DNA from: Candidatus Daviesbacteria bacterium
GTDB taxonomy: Bacteria; Patescibacteriota; Microgenomatia; Daviesbacterales; UBA10151
Assembly: GCA_016183305.1 (NCBI GenBank)
Contig: JACPEW010000018.1
Coordinates: 2,280 to 66,279 of the forward strand
Direction: 5' to 3'
Length of the DNA: 64,000 nt
Position 1 is the first letter of the stretch; every line of letters begins with the position of its first letter. Below are positions 734 through 64,000 of this stretch, one piece after another. Position numbers and translations under genes: made by a program. The notes beneath the pieces are model-generated. The model was not told the origin of the DNA. It saw only the letters and a list, made by a program, of their open reading frames with translations, and did no database searches.

Positions 734-1927
734 GTGAATTTGGATCTTGCCTGCAAGCAGCTTTTTTTAGAAAACAGAAGGTATAAAAGGAAATTCCAGT
801 ACACTGTGCCTTCTCCCACCACTTATCCCTATCAATGGTTATGGGATTCTTGTTTTCATATAATTATTTTGAATCATTTTAATGTTGAATATGCCAAAAA
901 AGAAGTTTTATCATTGCTATCCCAGCAATTCGAGAATGGCATGATTCCCCATATGATCTATTGGGACGACTTTACCGAAACTTCCTTTCCTCATATCAAG
1001 TGGGGTAAAAATGGCACAAGTACCTTAACCCAGCCTCCTATGGTTGCTTATGCTGTTTGGACAGTTTACCAAAAAGATAAAGACCTGAATTTTATAAAAT
1101 CAATATATCCAAAACTCTTCCATTATTATAGATATTTACTGACAGAACGGGATCCTCATGAGAATCACTTAATTGGTATTATGAATCCCGATGAGTCAGG
1201 AGAAGATAATTCTCCCCGTTTTGATATCCCCTTAGGCCTGCCTGCGCAGCATACTCTAAAAGAAAATACTAAAAAAAGGTTTGAGCTTATAAAACAAAAT
1301 ATAAAATGTAAATTTGATGCCCCTTTTTGTATGAGAAATTTTTTCTGGGTTAAGGATGCGCCTTTTAACTCTATCATGGTGGAAAACTTAAAACTGCTTT
1401 CAAAGATTGCCTTAGTAATTGGCAACCGCGATGATGCTTTGTATTTTAACCAAAAAGCAGATGAGATATCCTCAGCAATGAGGAAATTAATGTTAGAAGA
1501 CGGGATTTTTTGGTCTACCTATGGCGAGAATGGCAGTTACAAAAAGATTAAGGTCAAAACCTGGGCAGTTTTTGCCCCTCTTTTCGCCCAGATAGCAAGC
1601 AAAGCCGAGGCAAAAAATTTAGTTGATGATTACCTGCTTAACCCAAAAGAGTTTCAAACCAAATTCCCCGTTCCAACTACTTCTTTAAGCGAACCTTCAT
1701 TTGATCCTGAAGGGTTTTGGCGGGGGCCTATTTGGATGGGAACTAACTGGTTTATTTACAAAGGACTAATAAATTATGGTTTTCTAAAAGAAGCAAAAAC
1801 TATTAAAGAGGCTTCAGTTGCCTTGCTACAGAAGAGCGGTTTTAGGGAATATTTTAATCCTTTAACAGGAGAAGGTTTAGGAGCAGAAAACTTTACCTGG
1901 GGTGGATTGATTGTTGATATGGTTTAA
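734..1927 (+). CDS. GH63-like six-hairpin glycosidase (mannosylglycerate/glucosylglycerate hydrolase-like), paralog 1
   Basis: Motifs YPYQWLWDSCFH, TQPPM, NPDESGEDNSPRFD, WRGPIWMGTNWF and FREYFNPLTGEGLGA are present. It is a paralog of 10972..12138. Confidence 0.7.
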   Translation: MNLDLACKQLFLENRRYKRKFQYTVPSPTTYPYQWLWDSCFHIIILNHFNVEYAKKEVLSLLSQQFENGMIPHMIYWDDFTETSFPHIKWGKNGTSTLTQPPMVAYAVWTVYQKDKDLNFIKSIYPKLFHYYRYLLTERDPHENHLIGIMNPDESGEDNSPRFDIPLGLPAQHTLKENTKKRFELIKQNIKCKFDAPFCMRNFFWVKDAPFNSIMVENLKLLSKIALVIGNRDDALYFNQKADEISSAMRKLMLEDGIFWSTYGENGSYKKIKVKTWAVFAPLFAQIASKAEAKNLVDDYLLNPKEFQTKFPVPTTSLSEPSFDPEGFWRGPIWMGTNWFIYKGLINYGFLKEAKTIKEASVALLQKSGFREYFNPLTGEGLGAENFTWGGLIVDMV

Positions 1928-1936
1928 ACTTAAGTT

Positions 1937-3337
1937 ATGGGATTAAATCTATTAAAAACCAATACTCTTCCTGAGGCTTTGCCAGTTAAAAAACTGATTG
2001 GTCCAAGTTTTTTGATTTTAGCCTTAGGACTGGGCAGCGGTGAGGTAATTTTGTGGCCATATTTGTCTGCTAATTTTGGTTTGGGGATTATATGGGGAGC
2101 ATTATTAGGTCTGACTTTTCAATTTTTTATGAACATGGAAATTGAAAGGTATGCTTTAGCTCATGGAGAGAGTATTTTTGTGGGGCTGGCTAGGAAGTTT
2201 AGATTGATTTCTTTTTGGTTTTTGTTTTCTACTTTTATTCCCTGGATGTGGCCAGGTATTATTGCCTCCTCTGCTAAATTTTTAGGCACTGTGATAGGGG
2301 TTGCTGGTACTCATTACTTGGCTATAGGTTTGCTTTTTTTGATTGGAACAATTTTGTCTTTAGGGCCGGTTTTGTATAAAACAGTAGAGTTTTTGCAAAA
2401 AAGAATTATTCTTTTGGGAGTACCATCAGTATTTTTACTCAGTTTAATTTTAGCTAGGCCTGAGCACTGGCTGGATTTAGCCCAAGGGGCAGTTGGTATA
2501 GGCAAAGGTTATTTTTTGCTGCCAGAGGGTTTAGCAATAGCCTCATTTTTAGCAGCTTTAGCTTATGCAGGAGCAGGTGGTAATTTAAACCTTGCCCAAT
2601 CTTATTATGTGAAAGAAAAGGGTTATGGAATGGGAAAATATGCAGGCAGAATTACCGGCTTACTGACTGGGAAAAAAGAGCAGGTGTCTTTGACCGGGAC
2701 TAAATTTGAAGCAAATGAGGAAAATCTAAATAAATTTAATAAATGGTGGAGAAATATTAATATTGAGCATTTTGTGGTTTTTTGGTTAACAGGGTCTATA
2801 ACTATTTTGCTTTTGGCGCTGCTGTCCTATTCCACAGTGTTTGGTTTGGGTGGTAATGCCCAGGGAGTAAATTTTGTAATAAAAGAAGCAAGTGTCATCG
2901 GGCAAAATATAGCACCTTTTGCGGGTACTTTCTTTTTGATTGTAGTTGGTATAACTTTATTTGGTACCCAACTAGGAGTGTTTGATGCTACCAGCAGGAT
3001 ATTATCAGAAAATTTAATTTTAAGCTCTTTTGGAAAGCTTAGCGAACTGAATCTTAGATGTTTATATTACTTGGTTTTGTGGCTGCAAATTTTAGCTGGA
3101 ATTACTATTTTGCTGTTAGGTTTTACTGAGCCTTTACAGCTCGTGATAACAGCTGCTGTTTTAAATGCTATAGCTATGTTTGTTCATGTTGGACTGACTT
3201 TATGGTTGAATTTAAGTTTACTAGATAAACAAATCAGGCCTTCCTTATTTAGGGTAAGCGCTATGGTTTTAGCATTTCTTTTTTATGGAGGCTTTAGCAC
3301 TTATACAGTTTATGATAGATTTATTAGAAACTTCTAA
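1937..3337 (+). CDS. Polytopic membrane transporter, Nramp-like
   Basis: 466 aa and highly hydrophobic. The N-terminal GPSFLILALGLGSGEVILWPYL...MNMEIERYAL resembles Nramp-related carriers. The family assignment is tentative. Confidence 0.45.
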   Translation: MGLNLLKTNTLPEALPVKKLIGPSFLILALGLGSGEVILWPYLSANFGLGIIWGALLGLTFQFFMNMEIERYALAHGESIFVGLARKFRLISFWFLFSTFIPWMWPGIIASSAKFLGTVIGVAGTHYLAIGLLFLIGTILSLGPVLYKTVEFLQKRIILLGVPSVFLLSLILARPEHWLDLAQGAVGIGKGYFLLPEGLAIASFLAALAYAGAGGNLNLAQSYYVKEKGYGMGKYAGRITGLLTGKKEQVSLTGTKFEANEENLNKFNKWWRNINIEHFVVFWLTGSITILLLALLSYSTVFGLGGNAQGVNFVIKEASVIGQNIAPFAGTFFLIVVGITLFGTQLGVFDATSRILSENLILSSFGKLSELNLRCLYYLVLWLQILAGITILLLGFTEPLQLVITAAVLNAIAMFVHVGLTLWLNLSLLDKQIRPSLFRVSAMVLAFLFYGGFSTYTVYDRFIRNF

Positions 3338-4899
3338 TTAGTATTAGTTTTTAGCTTCTCTGTTACATCTATAAATTTATAATAATTTTTATCATCCTCA
3401 AAAATAATATTCCGGTCAGGAAGCAGTGGCAGATTAGTGCCAAAGTAAGTATTAAAAATCAGCCTGAAGGAATTAACTGGAGTAATTGCTGGATAAAGAA
3501 CATTATTTTTGTTTCCAGGTAATAAATAAGCTGTCAGGATGGGAAACTTTTCTTTTAAAGACTGGTCACTGGCATTTTTCCAGGCAAGGTTTTTAGAGAT
3601 TGGGTTTAAAATTGGCAGAGGCCCTTCATCTGCTTGAATTAGAATAACAGGCTTAACTGAAGAACTAGCTAATATTTTAGTTAAAACCTCTTCCATTTTT
3701 TTATTAGCGCATTGCAACTGGTTCAAATAATTTTCTTTCTCTCCGCTTTTAGAAGTAACAGTTTCTGGGAGAGGCTCACAATCTTTACCTAAAACATAAG
3801 GGTCATGCGGGATTAGGATATGGGTAAAAACAAATTTAGGTCCTCCTTGATTGATAATTTGATTAAACACCTCAAACTCATATAAAATCCTGCTTCTTTC
3901 CTCATTATTTTTTGGCTTCTCAGAAACCGCAGTGGGATCTGGATATAGTTTGGTTAAAATAGGAGAAGCCAAAGTAGTTTGTAAAAAGCCAGAGGTAAAC
4001 TCATCAGCAAATGGGTAACGCCCTCCTTTTAAAACAAAATTCTGGGAAGCCTTAGGGTTTGACCTGGTAGGGTCCCAGCCAGACCCAACATGAATATATG
4101 AATAACCTTTACTTTTTAAAAGTTGGATTACTTTACCATTTTGTACCAAAGGAGTGACAATTGATTCATCAGAAGTTGCTCCCCCATTAGTTTTTTCAGT
4201 TAAAAAATTTAAATACTCCATGTTCAGAGTAGAACCTAGAGATAAAAAAGTTTTAGGATAATTAGAAGTTGCTTCAGAGGCAATATAAAAACCTTTACTT
4301 TTTAGAAAATCTAAAAAAGGATTGTTATCAAAGCCATATTGTTTTAAAACCTCTGCCCCAGCATACCTGTCTAACACAAAGTAATAGATATCAGGTTTCT
4401 GACCGGCTATCTCACTATTTTCCTCAGGGATAGACCCGCTTTCTAAATTAAGTAAAGACAATCTTTTTATCTGGACTTCAAAAAAAGCGTTATTGCTTAG
4501 AACCATAATAATTAAAATTACCGATAAAATACTTAAAGCCCGGCTAATGTTATGAAGATATTTTTGGTAGCGGAAAACCAGAAAAATGAGGAATATAAAA
4601 ATAACCAGCAAACATATAGAAAGCAAGATATCAGAAGTTAATTTAATGCTTTTTGCCAGTTCTTTTACCCTGCTATAAGAAAAGAAAATAAGAATTAATA
4701 GTGAACTTGCTACAGCAGAAATTTCCAGTTTTCTAATAACGAGCCAGCAAACTGAGGAGATAAGTCCCAAAAAAGCCAGTGATAGAAGGATAGGTATTAG
4801 TAAAACATTTTCTTTATATTGGTTAATATTTTGGCTGTATAAAAAAATAGCGGGATAAAGGCTGAAAAAAATGGGGTGCAGGAAGAAGTATTTCTTCAT
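3334..4899 (-). CDS. Membrane-anchored sulfatase/alkaline-phosphatase superfamily protein (LTA-synthase-like)
   Basis: N-terminal TM helices are followed by DIYYFVLDRYAG, HILIPHDPYV and ILIQADEGP segments. The start was moved to the MKKYFF Met so that it overlaps the upstream stop by 4 nt. Confidence 0.6.
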   Translation of the reverse strand: MKKYFFLHPIFFSLYPAIFLYSQNINQYKENVLLIPILLSLAFLGLISSVCWLVIRKLEISAVASSLLILIFFSYSRVKELAKSIKLTSDILLSICLLVIFIFLIFLVFRYQKYLHNISRALSILSVILIIMVLSNNAFFEVQIKRLSLLNLESGSIPEENSEIAGQKPDIYYFVLDRYAGAEVLKQYGFDNNPFLDFLKSKGFYIASEATSNYPKTFLSLGSTLNMEYLNFLTEKTNGGATSDESIVTPLVQNGKVIQLLKSKGYSYIHVGSGWDPTRSNPKASQNFVLKGGRYPFADEFTSGFLQTTLASPILTKLYPDPTAVSEKPKNNEERSRILYEFEVFNQIINQGGPKFVFTHILIPHDPYVLGKDCEPLPETVTSKSGEKENYLNQLQCANKKMEEVLTKILASSSVKPVILIQADEGPLPILNPISKNLAWKNASDQSLKEKFPILTAYLLPGNKNNVLYPAITPVNSFRLIFNTYFGTNLPLLPDRNIIFEDDKNYYKFIDVTEKLKTNTN

Positions 4900-6284
4900 C
4901 TTTTTGTCTTCTCCATTAAATATAATATTCTTTGGCTGTTTTTGATAGGACAAATTTTTTTGATCTGGAAAAATTCTTTAAAAGCTTCCTCAAAACCTGC
5001 TTTAGTATAGGCTGGGAAAATATCTTCCCTATTTTGCAATAAAATTTTAACTTGCGAATCCTCTTTTGGTATAAACTCAATTATTAAATATTTGCTTAGT
5101 TTAGAAAAGAGAGAGGCAATATAAGATAAAGGTATATTAGCAGAGATTGCTAAATGATGAACTAAAGCTAAGGCTAGGGTAACGTCAGCAGGTCCTCTTT
5201 GAAAAAGAGATAACCTTTCTTCATTTGCCCAACCTAAAGACGGAGTTGGATTTGTTAAATCAATAAATAAGGGCAAAATATTTGTTTCATGATCCTTTAT
5301 CAGTTGTTGATAGTTTTTTTCTAAAGCTCCTAAATCAAGATCAAAAGAAATAACTAAATCAGCAAATTGCTTAGCAATTCTAGAAAAATAACCGGTATTT
5401 GCCCCCAAGTCCCAAATAGTTTTTGATTTAATAGATTTTAAAAAGCCTTTAACAAGTTCTCCTTTTTGGGTTAACGAAGAAGATGTGTAGTTATTATTTT
5501 CTCCGCTATAATACTCAGACCATTGTGTGTCTTTTGTATTCCAAGACAAGCTTTTGATTACCCCTTCTAAATTATCCAGTAAACCCAAAAATGCTCTTTT
5601 ACTAAAGCTTTTTTGGATCCTTGCAGAGCTTAGTTTTTTTTGATGATATTTTTTCTGGCTGGCAGCATGAGCATGGATATGTAGCATGACCCCTGGTTTA
5701 AAATGAGAGCGGAAGGGCAGCAATTTTGAGGCTAAATCAAGAGGAATACCATTAATAAAAAAAGAACTTAGCCTATTAAGACGGAAGTCAGTTAAAGACA
5801 TTAAGGTAAGAGGTGCTAAAAAATGTTCCACAAATTGTTTATAAGCAATCCAAGGTTTGCCTTCTCCGTATTTTTCAAAAGAAAGAGTATCAATGAGAAT
5901 TGGTTTTCCTTTCAAAAATTGAATATTAAAAGCGCTGGCATCTTTTAAACTTAATCCATGCTCTAAAGCAATTTTCTGGATATTTAAGGTTAAGAAAGCA
6001 GCATCTTTTAGCATCCCAAAACACCATTCATAAGGATAAGAAATAAAAGGGATTTGTTTAGGCTTAATAATTTTGTAGGCTTCAGGCGCTGGGTTTTTTA
6101 AATCAATTTCCTGATGTTCTATCAGCAGGTTTGAGGAAACTAGTTTATCATATAGCCCGGAATTTATTAGTAACTGGTAGTTGTCCTGATAGCTTTTATT
6201 AATCTGGCGGTAGATTAATTCTTTAATAGAAAAAACAAAACCGCTTGGGTCTTTAAAAGATGCAGAAATCCTGTCATTTTTCAT
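4896..6284 (-). CDS. Class I SAM-dependent methyltransferase with N-terminal extension
   Basis: IWDLGANTGYFSRIA is a glycine-rich SAM motif, and the gene overlaps both flanking genes in operon fashion. Confidence 0.6.
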   Translation of the reverse strand: MKNDRISASFKDPSGFVFSIKELIYRQINKSYQDNYQLLINSGLYDKLVSSNLLIEHQEIDLKNPAPEAYKIIKPKQIPFISYPYEWCFGMLKDAAFLTLNIQKIALEHGLSLKDASAFNIQFLKGKPILIDTLSFEKYGEGKPWIAYKQFVEHFLAPLTLMSLTDFRLNRLSSFFINGIPLDLASKLLPFRSHFKPGVMLHIHAHAASQKKYHQKKLSSARIQKSFSKRAFLGLLDNLEGVIKSLSWNTKDTQWSEYYSGENNNYTSSSLTQKGELVKGFLKSIKSKTIWDLGANTGYFSRIAKQFADLVISFDLDLGALEKNYQQLIKDHETNILPLFIDLTNPTPSLGWANEERLSLFQRGPADVTLALALVHHLAISANIPLSYIASLFSKLSKYLIIEFIPKEDSQVKILLQNREDIFPAYTKAGFEEAFKEFFQIKKICPIKNSQRILYLMEKTKR

Positions 6285-6580: not shown

Positions 6581-7219
6581 TTACCGGCCTGACCTTTTGG
6601 ATCTTTTTGATCCACCTCTGTGTCTAATTCCGCTTAAATGAACAGGACCATATTCCCTGTATGGTTCTTCTCTTCTAGTAAATTCCTCCCGGGATTCAAC
6701 GCTTTTAATATTGTCTGCATCAAAATCCTTCAGGATATTTTCTACTTCCTGTTCCTCGCCTTCTCTGGCTGGAATAGCTATTAAAATGTCTCCTTCCTTA
6801 ATGTGTCCTTCATAAATAGCTGCATCCTCTTGGGATAGTCCGAAAGTTGAAGCTAAAGCACCAATCAAACCTCCTGCTAATGCTCCGGTGGCTGCGCCAG
6901 ATGCTGTGGTAGCTGCTGCTCCAGACAAGCCAAGAACTGCTGCTATTGGTCCTCCAATAAAGAAAGCCCCTAAACCAGGAATTACAAAGAAGGTAACCAG
7001 TCCTGCTATCCCTCCAACCACTGCTCCTGCGGCTGCTCCTCCTAAGGTTCCGCCAACTACATTTTCAGCCCCAGTTTCTGCAGCTAGTTTTTCTTCCGCG
7101 CCTCTATCCCTCATTATAATAGAAATGTCTTTTGGGTTATAGCCTTCTGCTTCCAATCCAGAAACAGCACCACTAGCCCTGTCTCTATGTGTAAAAACTC
7201 CTAAAACTACACTTGCCAT
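6581..7219 (-). CDS. Gly/Ala-rich membrane stress protein (YflT/general-stress-like N-domain)
   Basis: N-terminal VVLGVFTHRDRASGAVSGLEAEGYNPKDISII is followed by glycine-zipper TM segments and a basic tail. Confidence 0.5.
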   Translation of the reverse strand: MASVVLGVFTHRDRASGAVSGLEAEGYNPKDISIIMRDRGAEEKLAAETGAENVVGGTLGGAAAGAVVGGIAGLVTFFVIPGLGAFFIGGPIAAVLGLSGAAATTASGAATGALAGGLIGALASTFGLSQEDAAIYEGHIKEGDILIAIPAREGEEQEVENILKDFDADNIKSVESREEFTRREEPYREYGPVHLSGIRHRGGSKRSKRSGR

Positions 7220-7220
7220 A

Positions 7221-7481
7221 TTATTTCACCCCCTTCCGGGCTCTTTTGCCCAATCTAAGTCTGTGTTCTATCTCTTTTTCCTGCTTCATTGCTGCTTTTT
7301 CCATATCCTTCATAGAATCCATAACCTTCTTTTTAACACTAGATACAGTATGAAATACTTTATCTCTAACTTTTTTATCAGATAAGACTTTGGTAGCAAC
7401 TGCCCCAACTCCTGCCCCAATAACTGCTCCAGTAACTCCTGCAGCCATAGGATTCATTTGTTTACCATTTGTATCAGTCAA
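7221..7481 (-). CDS. YtxH-like protein
   Basis: MAAGVTGAVIGAGVGAVATKVL anchor followed by a charged helical tail. It is a paralog of 51559..51837. Confidence 0.5.
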   Translation of the reverse strand: MTDTNGKQMNPMAAGVTGAVIGAGVGAVATKVLSDKKVRDKVFHTVSSVKKKVMDSMKDMEKAAMKQEKEIEHRLRLGKRARKGVK

Positions 7482-17555: not shown

Positions 17556-17602
17556 TCTCACATGCTTGCTAGAGATATTACTATAAAGAATTATTCCCAA
17601 TA

Positions 17603-19072
17603 ATGAATTCAAATCCAGAACTTAAAGCTGTTGTAATACAAGGTGGTATGGGAGTTGGTGTTTCCAGGTATCCCTTAACAAGAGCAGTTTCTCTGGCAGG
17701 AGAAAAATTAGGGGTTCCAATCATGGGAACCTTGTCTGGAACAGGAATCGGACCGGTAGTTGCAAGGATATTGCAAAATGGTGATCCAGGGGGACATTAC
17801 CAAAGAGCTTTCGAAGCTTTCCCGAATCAGAAAATGGCAGAGCATGTTTGGAATACATATTATATCGAAGGTGGAAAAGCTGCGGATAAGTCATATAAAC
17901 CAACTCCGATGGTGAATTTTGTGCTAGGTCAGAATGTTGCAGAGCTAATAATTTGTGCTAACTTTGCAGAGGTTTGGTTAGGTAAGCAAGATCATAATCG
18001 GCCAATAGCTATTAATTACCTTGAAAAGATACAAACACCCCACCTTCCGGAGCTTTATGGTGCGATGTTGGCCGGAGTGGATGTTGTGATAATGGGAGCA
18101 GGGATTCCGGATCAGGTGCCAGGTGTCTTGGATAAGTTTTCCAGAGGTCAACCGGCGTCGTATCTGATAGATGTGGATGGAAAGAGATTACCGGAGAATG
18201 CAATGATATTTAACCCTTCTGTATATACTCATGTCACTCAGTTAAAGCGCCCAGATTTTTATGCCATTGTAGCTTCCAATGTTTTAGCTAAGGTTCTCAA
18301 AGTAAGACAAAAAAATATTGGAGGAGTGAATGGATTCATTGTAGAAAATTCTAAAGCAGGAGGACATAATGCGCCTCCAAGAGAAAAGAACCAATTTAAC
18401 AAAAGAGGTGAGCCTGTTTATGGGCCAAAGGATGAAGTTAATCTAAAAGAACTGGCAAATTTAAATGTACCATTTTGGTTGGCAGGTGCTTATGCCGATC
18501 CTCAGAAGATAGCGGAAGCTATTGTGGCGGGTGCGTCAGGCATTCAGGCAGGTAGCATATTTGCTCTTTGTGAGGAATCAGGGTTAAGAGACGATCTAAA
18601 GCGGTCGATCATAAAACTCGCTTTTGAGGGCAAATTGGATGTTATCTCAGATCCTAGATGTTCCCCTTCCGGTTTTCCTTTTAATGTGGTACAGCTTTCG
18701 GATACTATATCTGATCCAAAAGTTTATGGGGCAAGACTCAGGATTTGTGATATAGGGTATCTCCGTCAGGCTTATAGGGAAAATGATGAGGGTGGGGTTC
18801 GTTTTCATTGTCCCGCTGAACCGGTTAAAACATATACTAAACGTGGGGGGAGGATTGAAGACACTGAGGGCAGAGTGTGTCTTTGTAACAACCTTTTCGC
18901 TGCAGCTGGTTTAGGTCAAATAAGAAACGGTGAATTAGAGCCGGCAATAGTAACCTTAGGTCATGACTGGGGATTTATTCGATATTTAATTACTAATGGA
19001 AATGGAAGGTATACAGCAGAAAATGCAATTACCTACTTATTTGGGAATCAAGCTCTGAAGGCTGCTGTTTAA
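17603..19072 (+). CDS. Nitronate monooxygenase / NPD-like FMN oxidoreductase
   Basis: GGMGVGVS, GAGIPDQ and ENSKAGGHN segments. The composition is visibly GC-richer than the neighbours. Confidence 0.65.
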   Translation: MNSNPELKAVVIQGGMGVGVSRYPLTRAVSLAGEKLGVPIMGTLSGTGIGPVVARILQNGDPGGHYQRAFEAFPNQKMAEHVWNTYYIEGGKAADKSYKPTPMVNFVLGQNVAELIICANFAEVWLGKQDHNRPIAINYLEKIQTPHLPELYGAMLAGVDVVIMGAGIPDQVPGVLDKFSRGQPASYLIDVDGKRLPENAMIFNPSVYTHVTQLKRPDFYAIVASNVLAKVLKVRQKNIGGVNGFIVENSKAGGHNAPPREKNQFNKRGEPVYGPKDEVNLKELANLNVPFWLAGAYADPQKIAEAIVAGASGIQAGSIFALCEESGLRDDLKRSIIKLAFEGKLDVISDPRCSPSGFPFNVVQLSDTISDPKVYGARLRICDIGYLRQAYRENDEGGVRFHCPAEPVKTYTKRGGRIEDTEGRVCLCNNLFAAAGLGQIRNGELEPAIVTLGHDWGFIRYLITNGNGRYTAENAITYLFGNQALKAAV

Positions 19073-46190: not shown

Positions 46191-46321
46191 TTTTTTAATC
46201 CCCGTAGGTGTTTTGATTTTGGTGATATACACTATATATAAATGTGTTATAATACATTTACAACAAGTTACCAGTGACAAATCCCTCGGTAGGGAAAGCT
46301 GCAAAAAGCTAGCTGACTAAC

Positions 46322-46640
46322 TGACCCCGCTTTCTAGCGGGGTTTATTTTTTTTGTCTAGGATCTTCTCTATGGCTCCAGTCTCAAAATGTAATTCCATG
46401 GTTAGCTTTTTATCTCTTTTTAATTTTCTAAACCATCTTTTAGGGTCGAGCTCGCCTGGATTGTCATAATACCTTCTGATTAAACCAGCAAGACAATCTG
46501 CTAATTGGATTTCTAGGGAAGAGTTATTCCTAACTGTTTTGAGAATCCAACTGAAATGCCTCTGTCTCTTAATATTTTTTTGAGTTTATGCTCGTACCAT
46601 TTTGGCTTTTTACCGTCAATAAAGATAACCATATCAGCTA
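46322..46640 (-). pseudogene. Frameshifted DUF3800-like gene fragment
   Basis: Two reverse frames read MVIFIDGKKPKWYEHKLKKILRDRGISVGFS and SSLEIQLADCLAGLIRRYYDNPGE.... Confidence 0.45.
46325..46354 (+). terminator. Rho-independent terminator
   Basis: CCCCGC-TTTCTA-GCGGGG followed by TTTATTTTTTTT. Confidence 0.65.
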
Positions 46641-59431: not shown

Positions 59432-59508
59432 GCCCCTGTAGCTCAGCGGATTAGAGCGCTTCGCTTCGGACGAAGAAGTCGGGGGTTCAATTCCCTCCAG
59501 GGGCTCCA
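59432..59508 (+). tRNA. tRNA-Arg (anticodon TCG), CCA encoded
   Basis: Acceptor GCCCCTG/CAGGGGC, anticodon stem CTTCG/CGAAG with loop CTTCGGA, and T-loop TTCAATT. Confidence 0.9.
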
Positions 59509-59600: not shown

Positions 59601-60071
59601 TTACTTGCTCATTAATTCGTGCAAGTTTTGCCATTCCTCGTTATCAAATAATTCTTTTACTTTGAGGTATTTATTCTTTCTTTCTCTTATATTTTCCCTT
59701 TCTCCATCGGAAACCGAAGTAGAAAACAAAGCACGATCTGCTTCTTCGAGCATTTTCTGGTAATAATCTTTCATCAGTTCCTTTTTTGCCTCAATTAAAA
59801 TTGAATCTAAAATATCTTTAAGTTTAGGAATTCTCCCTGCTATAAAATTCATTATCTTCTCACTTGTCTGGCCTCTGGCAACCATCTCGTTTACTTCCTT
59901 TATTCCTGTATTCCCCAGTTCTTTTTCCAGCTTTTCGGTTAAAAACTTCTCCCAAACTAAAGCACCAAGATGGCTATCTATCCTAGCTTTATCTTCATCC
60001 TTAATATTTTTAAAGCCTAAAATAGTTAATAAATCGTAGTTATTCAAATTTTGTTCATCTCTATCACTCAT
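59601..60071 (-). CDS. Helical hypothetical protein coupled to the giant ORF
   Basis: 156 aa, acidic and helical. Its ATG overlaps the upstream stop by 4 nt. Confidence 0.45.
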   Translation of the reverse strand: MSDRDEQNLNNYDLLTILGFKNIKDEDKARIDSHLGALVWEKFLTEKLEKELGNTGIKEVNEMVARGQTSEKIMNFIAGRIPKLKDILDSILIEAKKELMKDYYQKMLEEADRALFSTSVSDGERENIRERKNKYLKVKELFDNEEWQNLHELMSK

Positions 60072-63000
60072 TTTGTCACACTTTCTTCTCTAGATTGAGA
60101 AAACGATTCCCTCAGTCGCTTACCTGTTAGTTGCAGGTACAGCGCATTAAGAACATTAAATTTTGATGGTCCTATTTCACCTTGAAGTAGTTTCGTTTGA
60201 ATCACCCTATCCATAATATCAGTTCTGTTTTGCACAGTCGCAACATCTCCTTTGCCTCGCGTATGAATTAATACTGCCAAGTCGTAAAGAGTCTGAAAGT
60301 CTTGTGGTATTTCAATATGAGCTTGCTTTAATGCTTCCGTTCGTTCATTTCCACTCATATCTTTTAAGCTATCCTGTCCCTCGTTCATCCTCAGAAAAGA
60401 GCTTCTTAAACTTGGAGGGAATCTATCAGCAACGCCTGTGCTAGGGGTTACATAGCCGGAAGCAACATTTGCAAAGGCTTCTTGAGGACTAACAATGCCA
60501 CTGTCTCCCACAATAGTCTTTATACCTTCTGGAGCTTCCGCAAGCCATTGTAATGCTGGTCCATGTTCCCTAAGGTTAAACTTAAGAGCTAAATCTAAAT
60601 AACGTCCAGAGACTTGCTCAATATCTCCCGAGCTTTGTTCGCTACCATTTACAAGATGATCTTCTATCGCCGATACTAAAAGAAATTCAATACCAGTTAG
60701 TCTATTTTCCTTGACTGAACGCTCCATTCTACTTCGGATTTCCCTTTGTCTTAAGGTTGGGGTAACTCTTTTTAGCGCAAAATAGGCAAGTGCCAAAGCG
60801 GCAATAGGAAGACCTGTTTCTGTAGCTACTTTGCCAATTCCATCCCACTCAGAAACTTTTTCTGTAACCTCTTCGGGTTTAAGTAGCTGCGGAGGAAGAT
60901 AATGATCAGATTGCTTTTGTAGGTTCTGTTTTATTCTCTCGATTCTTTGATCAGGTACAGGACTAACCGGAGCTCCTACAGATGGTTGACTATCTGGTGA
61001 ACCAAAGGGCATATCTCCCGGCAGTACATAAGGAGTGTTATCCACTAGATATAGAGTACCATCGGGTAAATAAACCACATTATTTTGGTGGGATATATAA
61101 GAAAACAAAGTACCATTTATATTATAGAGTGTATTTCCTGGCTGATTGGCTATCTTGACTCCAGCGGATTCTAATAATTCTTTGGTTACATTAGAAGCAA
61201 CGCTACAAAAGTATTTTGCCTGTGGATCTTCAGCAACAGAGACAATACTATCAAACCCCGTGCTTTTTTTATTGATCTGGAAATCCAAACCATAAGCTCT
61301 AGTATTAGAATATTGCGCAAACAAAGTAAGATATTTCGTAACAATATTTGCAGCTTGAGTTCGATCCTTATTTTCACTAATTTGCCAAACAATCATTTCC
61401 TGTAAGAAATTCTTATGGAGCGTTTGTAATTTAGGATCATTTCTTAACTGATCATTAATTTCCATTGCTTTTGTCATATCAAACTTAGGGTTATATTCCC
61501 CAAAAGGAGAAATCCTTCCTAAAGACTGTACTCTGCCTGAAGTATCATTTAGCGTTTCTCTGGGCACTGGTTTAACCATAACAACGACTTCACTTGGCAT
61601 ATCTTTGGCGTCCTGCCAAAAAAGAGCTTTTTCCTTATTCATCATTGGAACCTTACCTCCAACTTGATAGGTACTTATTATCTCCCACCCAGAAGGTGGG
61701 TATAGACTTTGGTATACAATTTTGGGTTTATAAACCAAAATATCATCACCCCCGGGGACTAATTGAGTCTCTTCAAACAAGTTAACCCTATATGCATTTC
61801 CGAACGGTTCTAAAGGTTGTCCTTGCAAAGCCATAGGTTTACCGCCTACAAATTGCTCAATAGGGAAATACCCAATTGCTTCGCCATTTTGTCCGCTAAA
61901 CTCACCTTTTGGTAGCTGCAAAATATCAGCGTAAGCAAGAGGTCTTAGTCCTCGAAGTTCGGCAAGAGATATGCGGTCAGGCAGTCTGTCTTCGTATCGG
62001 GGCATTACCAATCCTCCAGAGCTTTGTGTAGCTGATTCCCTCACTGGCAACTTTACTTTAAAGCCAGCTAGATCAACTGTGTTTGAGGGGAGTTCTATCC
62101 TTGGCACCTCAACACCCATTTTATTTAATTGCGTTAATACTTCACCACCTCCAAAAATCAAGGCACCAACAACAAGAGACATCGTTGATAAACGGGCAAT
62201 ATTTGACCATAAGAGAGTGTCTCGTGTTCTTTGTGAAAGTCTTTGAGTAAAGCTGCTTTCATTCTTTCGTATTTCTGAATGCGCTAGTGCTCTCAACCTT
62301 CTTTGTTTTTCAGCAATTTGTCTCTCTACATCTTCCAAACTTGCAACAGAAGTAGCTTTATAAGCCTCCCAATCTATTGAGCCGTCCTTTTTAATATACT
62401 TTCCTAATTTTTCGCTTAATTCTGACAATAAGCTTGTCCTTACCCTTTCTTCCTGCGGTGAAGGTGCTAAAAGTTGTATTGTAAGATCATTACTTCTGGA
62501 AACAGAGGTCCCTTTTTTAATACTCATAGCAACCTCAGCGCCTTCTCTAAGTGGACCTTTCATTTCTATTTCAAAAATTGAATCGGCTATTTTTATATTG
62601 AGGCTACCACCGGCTGAAAGATAATCTTCAACAAAACCTCTTAAAGTAAGCGGTAAATCTGCATATCTCCCTCGGAAACTACCTGCAGCAGCAAGTTCTG
62701 CTACAATTTTGCCTTGCTGAACGTTTATAGTACCATTACTTTCCGACATAAACTTTGTTAATGCTGAGACTGCTCCGTGTTTGTGTTCTTCCAAATTCCT
62801 GCGCGTGTACCGCATATTTTCACCAGTTTCTTTTATTACTTCCTTTATTCCTAATGCTTGTGTTGCATCCTGTAAACCCAAAGCTTTAACTAAAACCTGG
62901 CAAAAAGCTTTTGAGGAAACAACAACGGCTTTTCTCCCTTCAGCTTCAAGCCTTCTTTTTATACTTTCATCCTGTGTTATAAGAACATCTTCCGGAAAAT

Positions 63001-64000
63001 TTCTCTCTTGGGCAATTTTCCTCCAAGCCAATACTAAAGCTTGACTCGTGTTGGCAGGTAAATTAGAAAAAATGGATTGATCAATTCCTGCTTCAGTACA
63101 GACTTCGTCCTCTTTGACTTCAACACAATTTTCTAAAATTCTGGAAAAAATCGTTGGATTTTCACAATGTTTTAAAGTAACAGCAATTAAATCTTTTGCA
63201 CTTCCGTCAATTGTGACCGAGTCTTTTGATCTGGATGGATTATAACCATACCTTGCTGTTACGCTTGGATCTCCAAATCCATAAAAACTCCAATTTAGTG
63301 CGTATCTTGCATCCCATCCCCATGTTCGTAGTTTTAGCCCACCTTCATACATAAATTCCACAGTTTTAGCTCCTGCATTTCTTCCAACCAGATCATCAGG
63401 CAAAATTTCGACTTTATGAGATGATTTCTGAACGGTTTCTGGGGATTCACAAAGCATCCTTCTGGTCTCTTCTTCTGTAAAAGATTGGCCATCTACAGAT
63501 TCTCCAATTTGAATTACCATCAAGTTAGCTGATTTAGGAGCTATCTCGGATCCTTTCAATTTACAACCTTCGTAGCGAGGATTTGCTGGTAAAAAAGAAG
63601 TTGGAATACCTTTAAGTGCTTCTACGATAGATTGATCAGGATTATCAATTCCTACAACTGTTTCGGTAACGTCGTTAGGAGTATATTCGTATTCCACTAC
63701 AAAGCGGGGTGCTTTTTGATGTACTGGATCCATAATTTTCATTTTTCCTTTTCCTCTCCAGGCATATATTTGATCTTGCACATTCTTAGCCCTTGAAGAA
63801 TAATCTATTGAAGATATATGCTGGTCAGTTAGAGCAGCTGTTGCGGCAACAGTTCCGCCTCTACCGTGTTTACCTAAAGTTGCACTTTCGGCTGTATGGG
63901 CAATATCTGCTATTTGGTAAGGAGATAACCCTTCAGAGCCAGCAATCTTGTTATGGAATTCAATTCTTACTGGACTAGGAGTTTCACCGGTAAGTTCAGT
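60068..64000 (-). CDS. Giant two-TM protein with transglutaminase-like cysteine-protease core (5' end beyond window)
   Basis: The reading frame stays open from 63781 to the window edge; I translated 73 further codons with no stop. The Cys-His-Asp layout is KYFCSVASNVTKELLESAGV ... SHQNNVVYLPDGTLYLVDNTP. TM segments lie near residues 520 and 985 of the track ORF. Confidence 0.6.
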   Translation of the reverse strand, partial: TELTGETPSPVRIEFHNKIAGSEGLSPYQIADIAHTAESATLGKHGRGGTVAATAALTDQHISSIDYSSRAKNVQDQIYAWRGKGKMKIMDPVHQKAPRFVVEYEYTPNDVTETVVGIDNPDQSIVEALKGIPTSFLPANPRYEGCKLKGSEIAPKSANLMVIQIGESVDGQSFTEEETRRMLCESPETVQKSSHKVEILPDDLVGRNAGAKTVEFMYEGGLKLRTWGWDARYALNWSFYGFGDPSVTARYGYNPSRSKDSVTIDGSAKDLIAVTLKHCENPTIFSRILENCVEVKEDEVCTEAGIDQSIFSNLPANTSQALVLAWRKIAQERNFPEDVLITQDESIKRRLEAEGRKAVVVSSKAFCQVLVKALGLQDATQALGIKEVIKETGENMRYTRRNLEEHKHGAVSALTKFMSESNGTINVQQGKIVAELAAAGSFRGRYADLPLTLRGFVEDYLSAGGSLNIKIADSIFEIEMKGPLREGAEVAMSIKKGTSVSRSNDLTIQLLAPSPQEERVRTSLLSELSEKLGKYIKKDGSIDWEAYKATSVASLEDVERQIAEKQRRLRALAHSEIRKNESSFTQRLSQRTRDTLLWSNIARLSTMSLVVGALIFGGGEVLTQLNKMGVEVPRIELPSNTVDLAGFKVKLPVRESATQSSGGLVMPRYEDRLPDRISLAELRGLRPLAYADILQLPKGEFSGQNGEAIGYFPIEQFVGGKPMALQGQPLEPFGNAYRVNLFEETQLVPGGDDILVYKPKIVYQSLYPPSGWEIISTYQVGGKVPMMNKEKALFWQDAKDMPSEVVVMVKPVPRETLNDTSGRVQSLGRISPFGEYNPKFDMTKAMEINDQLRNDPKLQTLHKNFLQEMIVWQISENKDRTQAANIVTKYLTLFAQYSNTRAYGLDFQINKKSTGFDSIVSVAEDPQAKYFCSVASNVTKELLESAGVKIANQPGNTLYNINGTLFSYISHQNNVVYLPDGTLYLVDNTPYVLPGDMPFGSPDSQPSVGAPVSPVPDQRIERIKQNLQKQSDHYLPPQLLKPEEVTEKVSEWDGIGKVATETGLPIAALALAYFALKRVTPTLRQREIRSRMERSVKENRLTGIEFLLVSAIEDHLVNGSEQSSGDIEQVSGRYLDLALKFNLREHGPALQWLAEAPEGIKTIVGDSGIVSPQEAFANVASGYVTPSTGVADRFPPSLRSSFLRMNEGQDSLKDMSGNERTEALKQAHIEIPQDFQTLYDLAVLIHTRGKGDVATVQNRTDIMDRVIQTKLLQGEIGPSKFNVLNALYLQLTGKRLRESFSQSREESVTK

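Follow-up and report, generated by a model that had tools for sequence, protein, structure and literature searches.

A conserved two-gene module of Patescibacteria with a predicted membrane protein that joins an Hsp90-like ATPase module to a TgpA-like transglutaminase-fold domain

In a 64,000-nucleotide stretch of DNA from a Candidatus Daviesbacteria bacterium (the window, by which we mean the whole stretch analysed), a very large open reading frame on the minus strand is directly followed by a small one. Our analysis shows a conserved two-gene module of the Patescibacteria (Candidate Phyla Radiation, CPR). On structural modelling, its larger product consists of an Hsp90-like module of ~670 residues, a transmembrane helix, a ~370-residue domain similar to that of the membrane transglutaminase TgpA, a second transmembrane helix and a tail of ~230 residues, and the smaller gene encodes a partner of ~155 residues. 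The parts of the module, with the evidence for each, are as follows.

60068..64000, minus strand: in-window part of the large open reading frame (residues 78-1387 of P0001 plus stop codon; residue-to-coordinate mapping checked).
62216..64000, minus strand: predicted Hsp90-like GHKL ATPase module, residues 1-672, with residues 78-672 in the window (AlphaFold2, Foldseek, motif register).
62135..62200, minus strand: predicted transmembrane helix 1, ~residues 678-699, IARLSTMSLVVGALIFGGGEVL (Kyte-Doolittle hydropathy, lysine and arginine distribution).
61007..62119, minus strand: TgpA-like transglutaminase-fold domain, residues 705-1075, predicted extracytoplasmic (model, Foldseek, invariant triad).
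60767..60817, minus strand: predicted transmembrane helix 2, ~residues 1139-1155, TGLPIAALALAYFALKR (hydrophobicity, lysine- and arginine-rich stretch after it).
60071..60754, minus strand: C-terminal tail, residues 1160-1387, predicted cytoplasmic, of no known family (tail HMM).
59601..60071, minus strand: partner gene, 156 residues (P0167, HYU93_03795; open reading frame and ATGA overlap).

The large frame is open from its stop codon at 60068-60070 through base 64000, a run of 1,310 codons, for which simple arithmetic gives a chance of ~1e-38 (at ~39% GC, ~6.5% of random codons are stops). The original prediction, made from the letters of the window, held that the frame stays open to the window edge, that position 63781 is merely the first start codon seen and that the protein exceeds 1,300 residues. 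Retrieval of the full frame confirms all three: the complete gene, found on a Logan contig, adds 77 N-terminal residues past the window edge, so that the GTG at 63781 is not the true start, which lies 231 nt beyond the edge. The full protein of 1,387 residues is identical to a database entry (P0001; NCBI hypothetical protein HYU93_03800, Candidatus Daviesbacteria). The two motifs cited in that prediction, YFCSVASN and SHQNNVVYLPDGTLYLVDNTP, are found in the translation, and the proposed coupling to a 156-residue frame at 59601-60071 holds as an ATGA overlap (…aaATGAgt…), in which the partner's start codon overlaps the stop codon of its large neighbour.

In the model, the N-terminal module begins with a Bergerat-fold N-domain; a middle segment and a C-terminal segment come next, and a long helix, residues 621-671, leads on to the first transmembrane helix. 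In the AlphaFold2 model of residues 1-672 (predicted local distance difference test, pLDDT, 83), only residues 112-121 are disordered, just before the glycine-rich motif, which is the position of the ATP lid in GHKL ATPases. The top Foldseek matches are full-length Hsp90 and TRAP1 structures, with E values from 4.6e-5 to 4e-4, probability 1.0 and 600-630 aligned columns (best ~608), followed by dozens of isolated Hsp90 N-domains and by topoisomerase VI-B (probability 0.9-1.0). The template modelling (TM) scores of the module against TRAP1 and Hsp90 are only 0.25-0.30, as expected because the three domains are differently arranged; likeness to Hsp90 is accordingly better secured for the N-domain than for the parts in the middle and at the C-terminus.

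The residues conserved in the family are YE44xxQN48AxD51, the invariant Asn94, TLG120xHG123RG125, Thr191 and Arg334/Ser338. When the family profile is aligned with the N-domain of yeast Hsp82 (P 0.008; the reference sequence, checked against the PDB, has 100% identity with 2bre and 1ah6), three of the four Bergerat motifs fall in register: motif I, ExxxNxxD, with E44/N48/D51 on E33/N37/D40 of Hsp82; motif III, GxxGxG, with G120/G123/G125 on G118/G121/G123; and the threonine of motif IV, with T191 on T171. E44 and D51 do not vary among 21 sequences, and G120, G125 and T191 are likewise invariant. In the region of motif II, GL101-102 aligns with GM83-84 of Hsp82, in uncertain register. These positions lie as follows.

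Just outside the window, minus strand: motif I (E44xxxN48xxD51), from the alignment.
63950-63952, minus strand: N94, invariant residue.
63857-63874, minus strand: motif III, G120/G123/G125, in the Hsp82 register.
63659-63661, minus strand: T191, the motif IV threonine.
63230-63232, minus strand: R334, invariant residue.

No Pfam match to HSP90 or another GHKL family was found by the HSP90, HATPase_c and HATPase_c_3 models in the window protein or in the 36 scanned relatives that share this module (group a, below), and a PDB sequence-profile search with the module alignment returned chance matches only. By the model and the motif register, residues 1-672 are an Hsp90-like GHKL ATPase module with an unusual nucleotide pocket, missed by current family libraries. 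The earlier view that the ~590 N-terminal residues visible in the window hold no recognisable motif is therefore given up.

The middle domain, residues 705-1075, comprises a beta-rich N-subdomain, a helical bundle and a core that carries the Cys-His-Asp residues. Its AlphaFold2 model, computed with a 36-sequence alignment, has a mean pLDDT of 83.7 and a predicted TM-score (pTM) of 0.80. In a Foldseek search of the PDB, the only significant matches are 6g4h (E 1.1e-6) and 6g49 (E 7.3e-6), both of the periplasmic domain of Pseudomonas aeruginosa TgpA, with probability 1.0 over 320-340 columns; the next matches are further Cys-His-Asp enzymes with the papain/transglutaminase fold, namely arylamine N-acetyltransferases, factor XIII, transglutaminase 2 (TG2) and vasohibin. 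This match gives transglutaminase-fold support to the core that had been proposed between the two transmembrane helices.

The sequences in the alignment are 22-49% identical to the window protein and share only ten invariant columns, which include Cys1009, His1048, and Asp1064 with the Thr-Pro that follows it. The three putative catalytic residues are also invariant in 36 full-length proteins that share the middle domain only (group b, below) and in a smaller set of 4 sequences. The original prediction had named beforehand two points on which it could fail, a lack of transglutaminase-fold support and a lack of conservation of Cys, His and Asp in homologs; the fold match and the invariance in 36 plus 36 sequences speak for it on both. 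Its arrangement of the triad stands; the third residue is Asp1064, 16 residues after His1048, and not Asp1057 of the "PDG" motif, which that prediction might have meant and which is often Asn in relatives. The triad maps to the following codons.

61205-61207, minus strand: Cys1009, triad.
61088-61090, minus strand: His1048, triad.
61040-61042, minus strand: Asp1064, triad.

Sequence comparison hardly reaches this domain. The Pfam transglutaminase core model PF01841 has no match in the window protein even at E<=1 and matches 0 of 36 group-b relatives, and a PDB sequence-profile search with the middle-domain alignment gave chance matches only. A trimmed hhalign comparison with the Pfam-positive core of group a places Cys on Cys and His on His, as a weak match (P 2.4e-4, probability 44%; untrimmed, 19%). 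Judged from the model and the invariant residues, the middle domain is a very divergent transglutaminase-fold domain with intact triad residues.

A word-indexed search of 5.8 billion proteins returned only three relatives, full-length and at 37-42% identity. When 1.84 billion cluster representatives were searched exhaustively by HMMER, the profile built on residues 1-1075 picked out 163 proteins with E ≤ 1e-3; where named, the members are assigned to Candidatus Daviesbacteria, "Patescibacteria group bacterium" or "bacterium". Re-scoring of the 163 relatives with separate domain HMMs divides them into three sets.

Set with both domains: six proteins, P0001-P0006, including the window protein, with the N region (residues 1-670) and the middle region (residues 705-1075).
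Group a: ~80 proteins, mostly of 1,000-1,400 residues, with the N-terminal region only.
Group b: ~60 proteins of 1,200-1,700 residues, with the middle region only and, in some, also the tail.

Pfam Transglut_core is found in the C-terminal half of 31 of the 36 group-a proteins scanned, and therefore the putative ATPase module has been joined to two different transglutaminase-fold domains. None of 36 group-b proteins scanned has a meaningful Pfam match, and a homologous N-terminus in this group was rejected (hhalign probability 0.2%): its N-terminal ~600 residues are unrelated. Nothing usable came from scanning the large protein and its partner against Pfam, NCBIfam and PADLOC, and PDB sequence-profile searches, with three alignments in all, yielded chance matches only. 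Group b (P0023-P0100; loci L010 and L011) is in itself a second ‘dark’ family of Patescibacteria with a cassette of transmembrane helix, TgpA-like domain and transmembrane helix. A weak AbiEii match of the relative P0025 was treated as chance. Six group-a proteins (P0019, P0024, P0029, P0030, P0034 and P0043) carry a charged, apparently coiled-coil insertion of ~60-100 residues in the middle of the Hsp90-like module, made of runs of E/K/R/A.

The distribution of the gene pair, which we checked, makes the pairing real. A partner of 147-162 residues lies directly downstream of the Hsp90-like gene at 9 distinct contexts with readable downstream sequence (window/L001, L004, L007, L008, L012, L013, L014, L015 and L016). 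The sole exception among loci of the Hsp90-like gene is that of P0006, with no partner within 6 kb downstream. An HMM built from four close partners finds those of group a at E 7e-22, 1e-17 and 1e-4 (nominal one-million-sequence database). The partner is absent at the two group-b loci L010 and L011; it therefore tracks the ATPase module and not the outside domain. It matches no Pfam family. At L016, tblastn finds a homolog of the large gene (1920-5174) directly upstream of the partner and absent from the gene calls on record; this homolog may be disrupted or simply missed in gene calling. Beyond the window edge (L001 128-358), a 76-residue frame precedes the large gene at a distance of ~200 bp and is called in all three contigs that hold P0001; at L010, a 73-residue frame occupies the matching position upstream of the group-b gene.

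Two hydrophobic segments, at ~residues 678-699 and ~1139-1155, flank the middle domain, in agreement with the two transmembrane helices of the original prediction. Lysines and arginines cluster before the first and after the second, with 6 in the 15 residues that follow helix 2, a charge pattern that fits an orientation with the N-terminus in, the middle domain out and the C-terminus in. In the predicted topology, the transglutaminase-fold domain faces the cell envelope, with the ATPase module, tail and partner in the cytoplasm. Helix 1 is moderately hydrophobic and rich in Ala and Gly (Kyte-Doolittle 1.4-1.65), and group-b proteins have stronger helices on both sides of the same domain. The tail HMM has 14 matching proteins, several group-b members among them; P0004 lacks the tail. 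Tail and partner both have a helix-friendly composition; homology between the two was rejected on comparison.

The reading that we favour, to which we give a little less than an even chance, is that an ATP-gated cytoplasmic clamp, assisted by the partner, exerts control across the membrane over an envelope-facing Cys-His-Asp enzyme. In a putative dimer, nucleotide binding would make the N-terminal modules close as it does in Hsp90, and the long helix and the transmembrane segments would relay this movement, so as to position or switch the enzyme outside. The enzyme might perform acyl-transfer chemistry on proteins of the envelope or of a host surface, whether it cross-links them, deamidates them or cleaves their peptide bonds. 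For the partner we propose the role of a cofactor to the Hsp90-like module, because its gene accompanies that module but not the outside domain; the tail might share this role. We think it unlikely that the whole is a new class of membrane machine, so far found only in Patescibacteria, in which a divergent Hsp90-type ATPase and a dedicated small cofactor would drive or gate a surface transglutaminase-fold enzyme by cytoplasmic, nucleotide-driven clamping. If true, this would be the first Hsp90 relative to serve as an inside-out transmembrane actuator.

Several observations weigh against transmembrane control by an ATP-driven clamp. No sequence-profile method (Pfam, NCBIfam, PDB HMM) ties either domain to its proposed family, so that both fold assignments rest on predicted structures with TM-scores of 0.25-0.34, values that we put down to inserts and to the way the domains are arranged. 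In motif II, no residue clearly takes the place of the adenine-binding Asp; the invariant Asn94 ends that strand, and the register is uncertain. In motif I, several group-a relatives have Gly in place of N48. ATP binding is therefore only putative. Helix 1 is weakly hydrophobic, falling below 1.4 in P0003. In group a, no transmembrane helix separates the ATPase from the transglutaminase core and the anchors are C-terminal; the transglutaminase thus lies on the ATPase's side of the membrane, and cross-membrane coupling is not general in the family. Dimerisation, catalysis, substrate and contact with the partner are points that we only infer.

The same weak helix and the layout of group a would also suit an entirely cytoplasmic or peripheral chaperone-enzyme, in which the two weak hydrophobic segments either fail to cross the membrane or make a re-entrant anchor, the transglutaminase-fold domain lies next to the clamp as in group a, the clamp holds clients and the Cys-His-Asp domain cleaves or cross-links them, an ATP-dependent quality control comparable to FtsH. 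We regard this as unlikely, since group-b proteins have clear transmembrane helices on either side of the same domain, the best structural match is a periplasmic domain itself flanked by transmembrane helices, and the distribution of lysines and arginines fits an outside location.

The neighbourhoods of the window family are variable and, in part, rich in mobile or defence genes, toxin-antitoxin genes among them: PIN/RHH and AAA_14-DUF4143 genes at L007; Bro-N, helicase and methyltransferase genes at L009; and an integrase 3.5 kb downstream at L004. Together with the rarity of the form with both domains (6 of 163 relatives) and a marginal AbiEi match of the partner in PADLOC-DB 2.0 (E 5e-4), they could indicate a conflict or defence module in which a MORC/paraMORC-type GHKL protein senses an invader and activates a transglutaminase-like peptidase, the partner being a regulator or antitoxin-like. 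This too is improbable. PADLOC-DB 2.0 has no match for the large proteins (P0001, P0007 and P0023), the structural match extends over the full length of Hsp90/TRAP1 and is not to MORC or MutL, and the AbiEi match was treated as chance, being marginal and to a helical, low-complexity protein. The window pair itself has a ROK-family gene and a tRNA as neighbours, and in two genomes the group-a pair stands between alaS and rpoB-rpoC (L014 5001-8717 and L015 1942-5642), a housekeeping context in contrast to the variable neighbourhoods of the window family.

GHKL domains serve as kinases in two-component sensors, and the missing Asp of motif II could mean an atypical or lost ATPase; the protein might then be a non-catalytic surface adhesin or sensor whose outside domain binds a ligand and whose inside GHKL domain signals outside-in like a sensor kinase. 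We hold this to be highly unlikely: the invariance of Cys, His and Asp at ~25% identity in 36 plus 36 sequences argues for catalysis, there is no DHp/HisKA phospho-acceptor domain and no adjoining response regulator, and the fold match is to Hsp90 and not to the CA domains of histidine kinases.

The original prediction had further called the gene atypical in composition, visibly GC-richer than its neighbours, and adjacent to a tRNA gene, which lies outside the module.

59432..59508, plus strand: tRNA-Arg(TCG), convergent neighbour, outside the module (RNA scan).

Against the mean of 50 long open reading frames in the window, the large frame has a GC content of 0.395 (0.361 ± 0.029, z about +1.2) and a GC content at third codon positions (GC3) of 0.263 (0.282 ± 0.037), the latter slightly under the mean; the excess is confined to codon positions 1 and 2 and therefore reflects amino-acid content. 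The composition test thus gives no sign of recent acquisition, and the claim of atypical DNA is withdrawn. The tRNA is indeed present, 92 bp from the gene pair on the opposite strand, but no tRNA occurs beside the homologs at L004, L007, L008, L009 and L010, and its adjacency is incidental. A horizontally acquired island gene beside tRNA-Arg, encoding a host-interaction protease whose two cytoplasmic domains are of unknown type, would be in keeping with the tRNA and with a GC content slightly over the window mean, but this explanation is largely refuted and hardly credible, given the normal GC3, the loci of relatives that lack a tRNA, the absence of any integrase or repeats noted nearby in the window and an N-terminal domain identifiable by Foldseek. 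The GC-richest long frames of the window, 6584-7225 on the minus strand (0.450) and 17573-19069 on the plus strand (0.418), both exceed the large frame. The sole match to a non-tRNA RNA family within the window is a DUF3800-II RNA (Rfam RF02961) at 46260-46326 on the plus strand (65.4 bits against a gathering threshold of 43.2, E 2.8e-11).

The closest known counterpart of the middle domain, TgpA (PA2873), is an inner-membrane transglutaminase of P. aeruginosa with its transglutaminase domain, residues 180-544, in the periplasm between transmembrane helices (PMC3507681). The window protein resembles it in the whole-domain fold of the periplasmic region, in the Cys-His-Asp triad and, by predicted topology, in the placement of the domain between transmembrane helices and ahead of a cytoplasmic C-terminal part. 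The architecture is accordingly less unusual than was first supposed, as the order of transmembrane helix, outside domain, transmembrane helix and cytoplasmic tail exists in TgpA also; what remains unusual is the Hsp90-like module fused to it. TgpA begins with a DUF3488 membrane domain of five helices and has a core that Pfam recognises as PF01841. The window protein matches neither family (DUF3488 is PF11992 in Pfam), and a single transmembrane helix and a 670-residue soluble module precede its domain. The tgpA gene is co-transcribed with PA2875-PA2874. No genes of the PA2875/PA2874 type are found at the loci examined, where the neighbours are the 76-residue frame upstream and the 156-residue partner downstream. 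We take PA2875 and PA2874 to be a MoxR-type AAA+ ATPase and a DUF58 protein; relative to that operon, the putative ATPase here is fused and of GHKL type instead of AAA+, and the operon partner is the 156-residue protein. The recurring link of a chaperone-type ATPase with a TgpA-type enzyme is suggestive.

Like the Hsp90 proteins HtpG, TRAP1 and Hsp82, the N-terminal module has motifs I, III and IV and, in the model, a flexible lid region, and the predicted structure of residues 1-672 aligns with full-length Hsp90 and TRAP1. It differs from them in being predicted to be membrane-tethered, fused to an enzyme domain and without a known co-chaperone-type partner, and in lacking an evident motif II Asp (Asn94 instead) and an HSP90 or HATPase_c Pfam match. 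The group-a proteins annotated as ‘transglutaminase domain-containing protein’ (for example MBU2543618.1 and TSA44686.1) have a homologous N module (E values as low as 1e-126) and, after the ATPase, a transglutaminase-fold domain, and their genes are followed by that of the same ~155-residue partner; there, however, the transglutaminase is of the canonical Pfam type with no transmembrane helix before it and with C-terminal anchors, whereas the window family has the group-b cassette and the tail. A further CPR enzyme, the vasohibin-like cysteine protease CPR-C4, is small and soluble, forms homodimers and has a Cys-His-Leu(carbonyl) triad (PMC9108980). Like the middle domain, it is a CPR-specific enzyme of the transglutaminase-like superfamily recognised only through structure, and vasohibin is among the weak fold matches found here, but CPR-C4 has neither an ATPase nor membrane segments and no detectable sequence relation to the window protein. 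In a full-text literature search, we found no description of a membrane protein that combines an Hsp90-like or GHKL module with a transglutaminase, the nearest being TgpA and CPR-C4. Both folds are known; the Hsp90-like family, its transglutaminase fusions, the membrane-spanning version and the dedicated partner appear to be undescribed.

What is known of Hsp90-family ATPases is that they are soluble chaperones. Membrane transglutaminases of the TgpA type are essential to P. aeruginosa but, to our knowledge, have no known substrate. The natural fusion described here, in two independent versions and with a fixed partner, offers a testable hypothesis, that chaperone-like ATPases control TgpA-like enzymes. 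The models would also assign folds to two large CPR protein families without a fold-relevant Pfam match (36 members of each scanned). As these organisms have tiny genomes and conserve a protein of 1,100-1,400 residues, in some lineages between alaS and rpoB, the protein likely matters for their envelope or life style and, if the proposed membrane machine is real, it might serve these reduced-genome episymbionts in building or remodelling their envelope or their attachment to the host.

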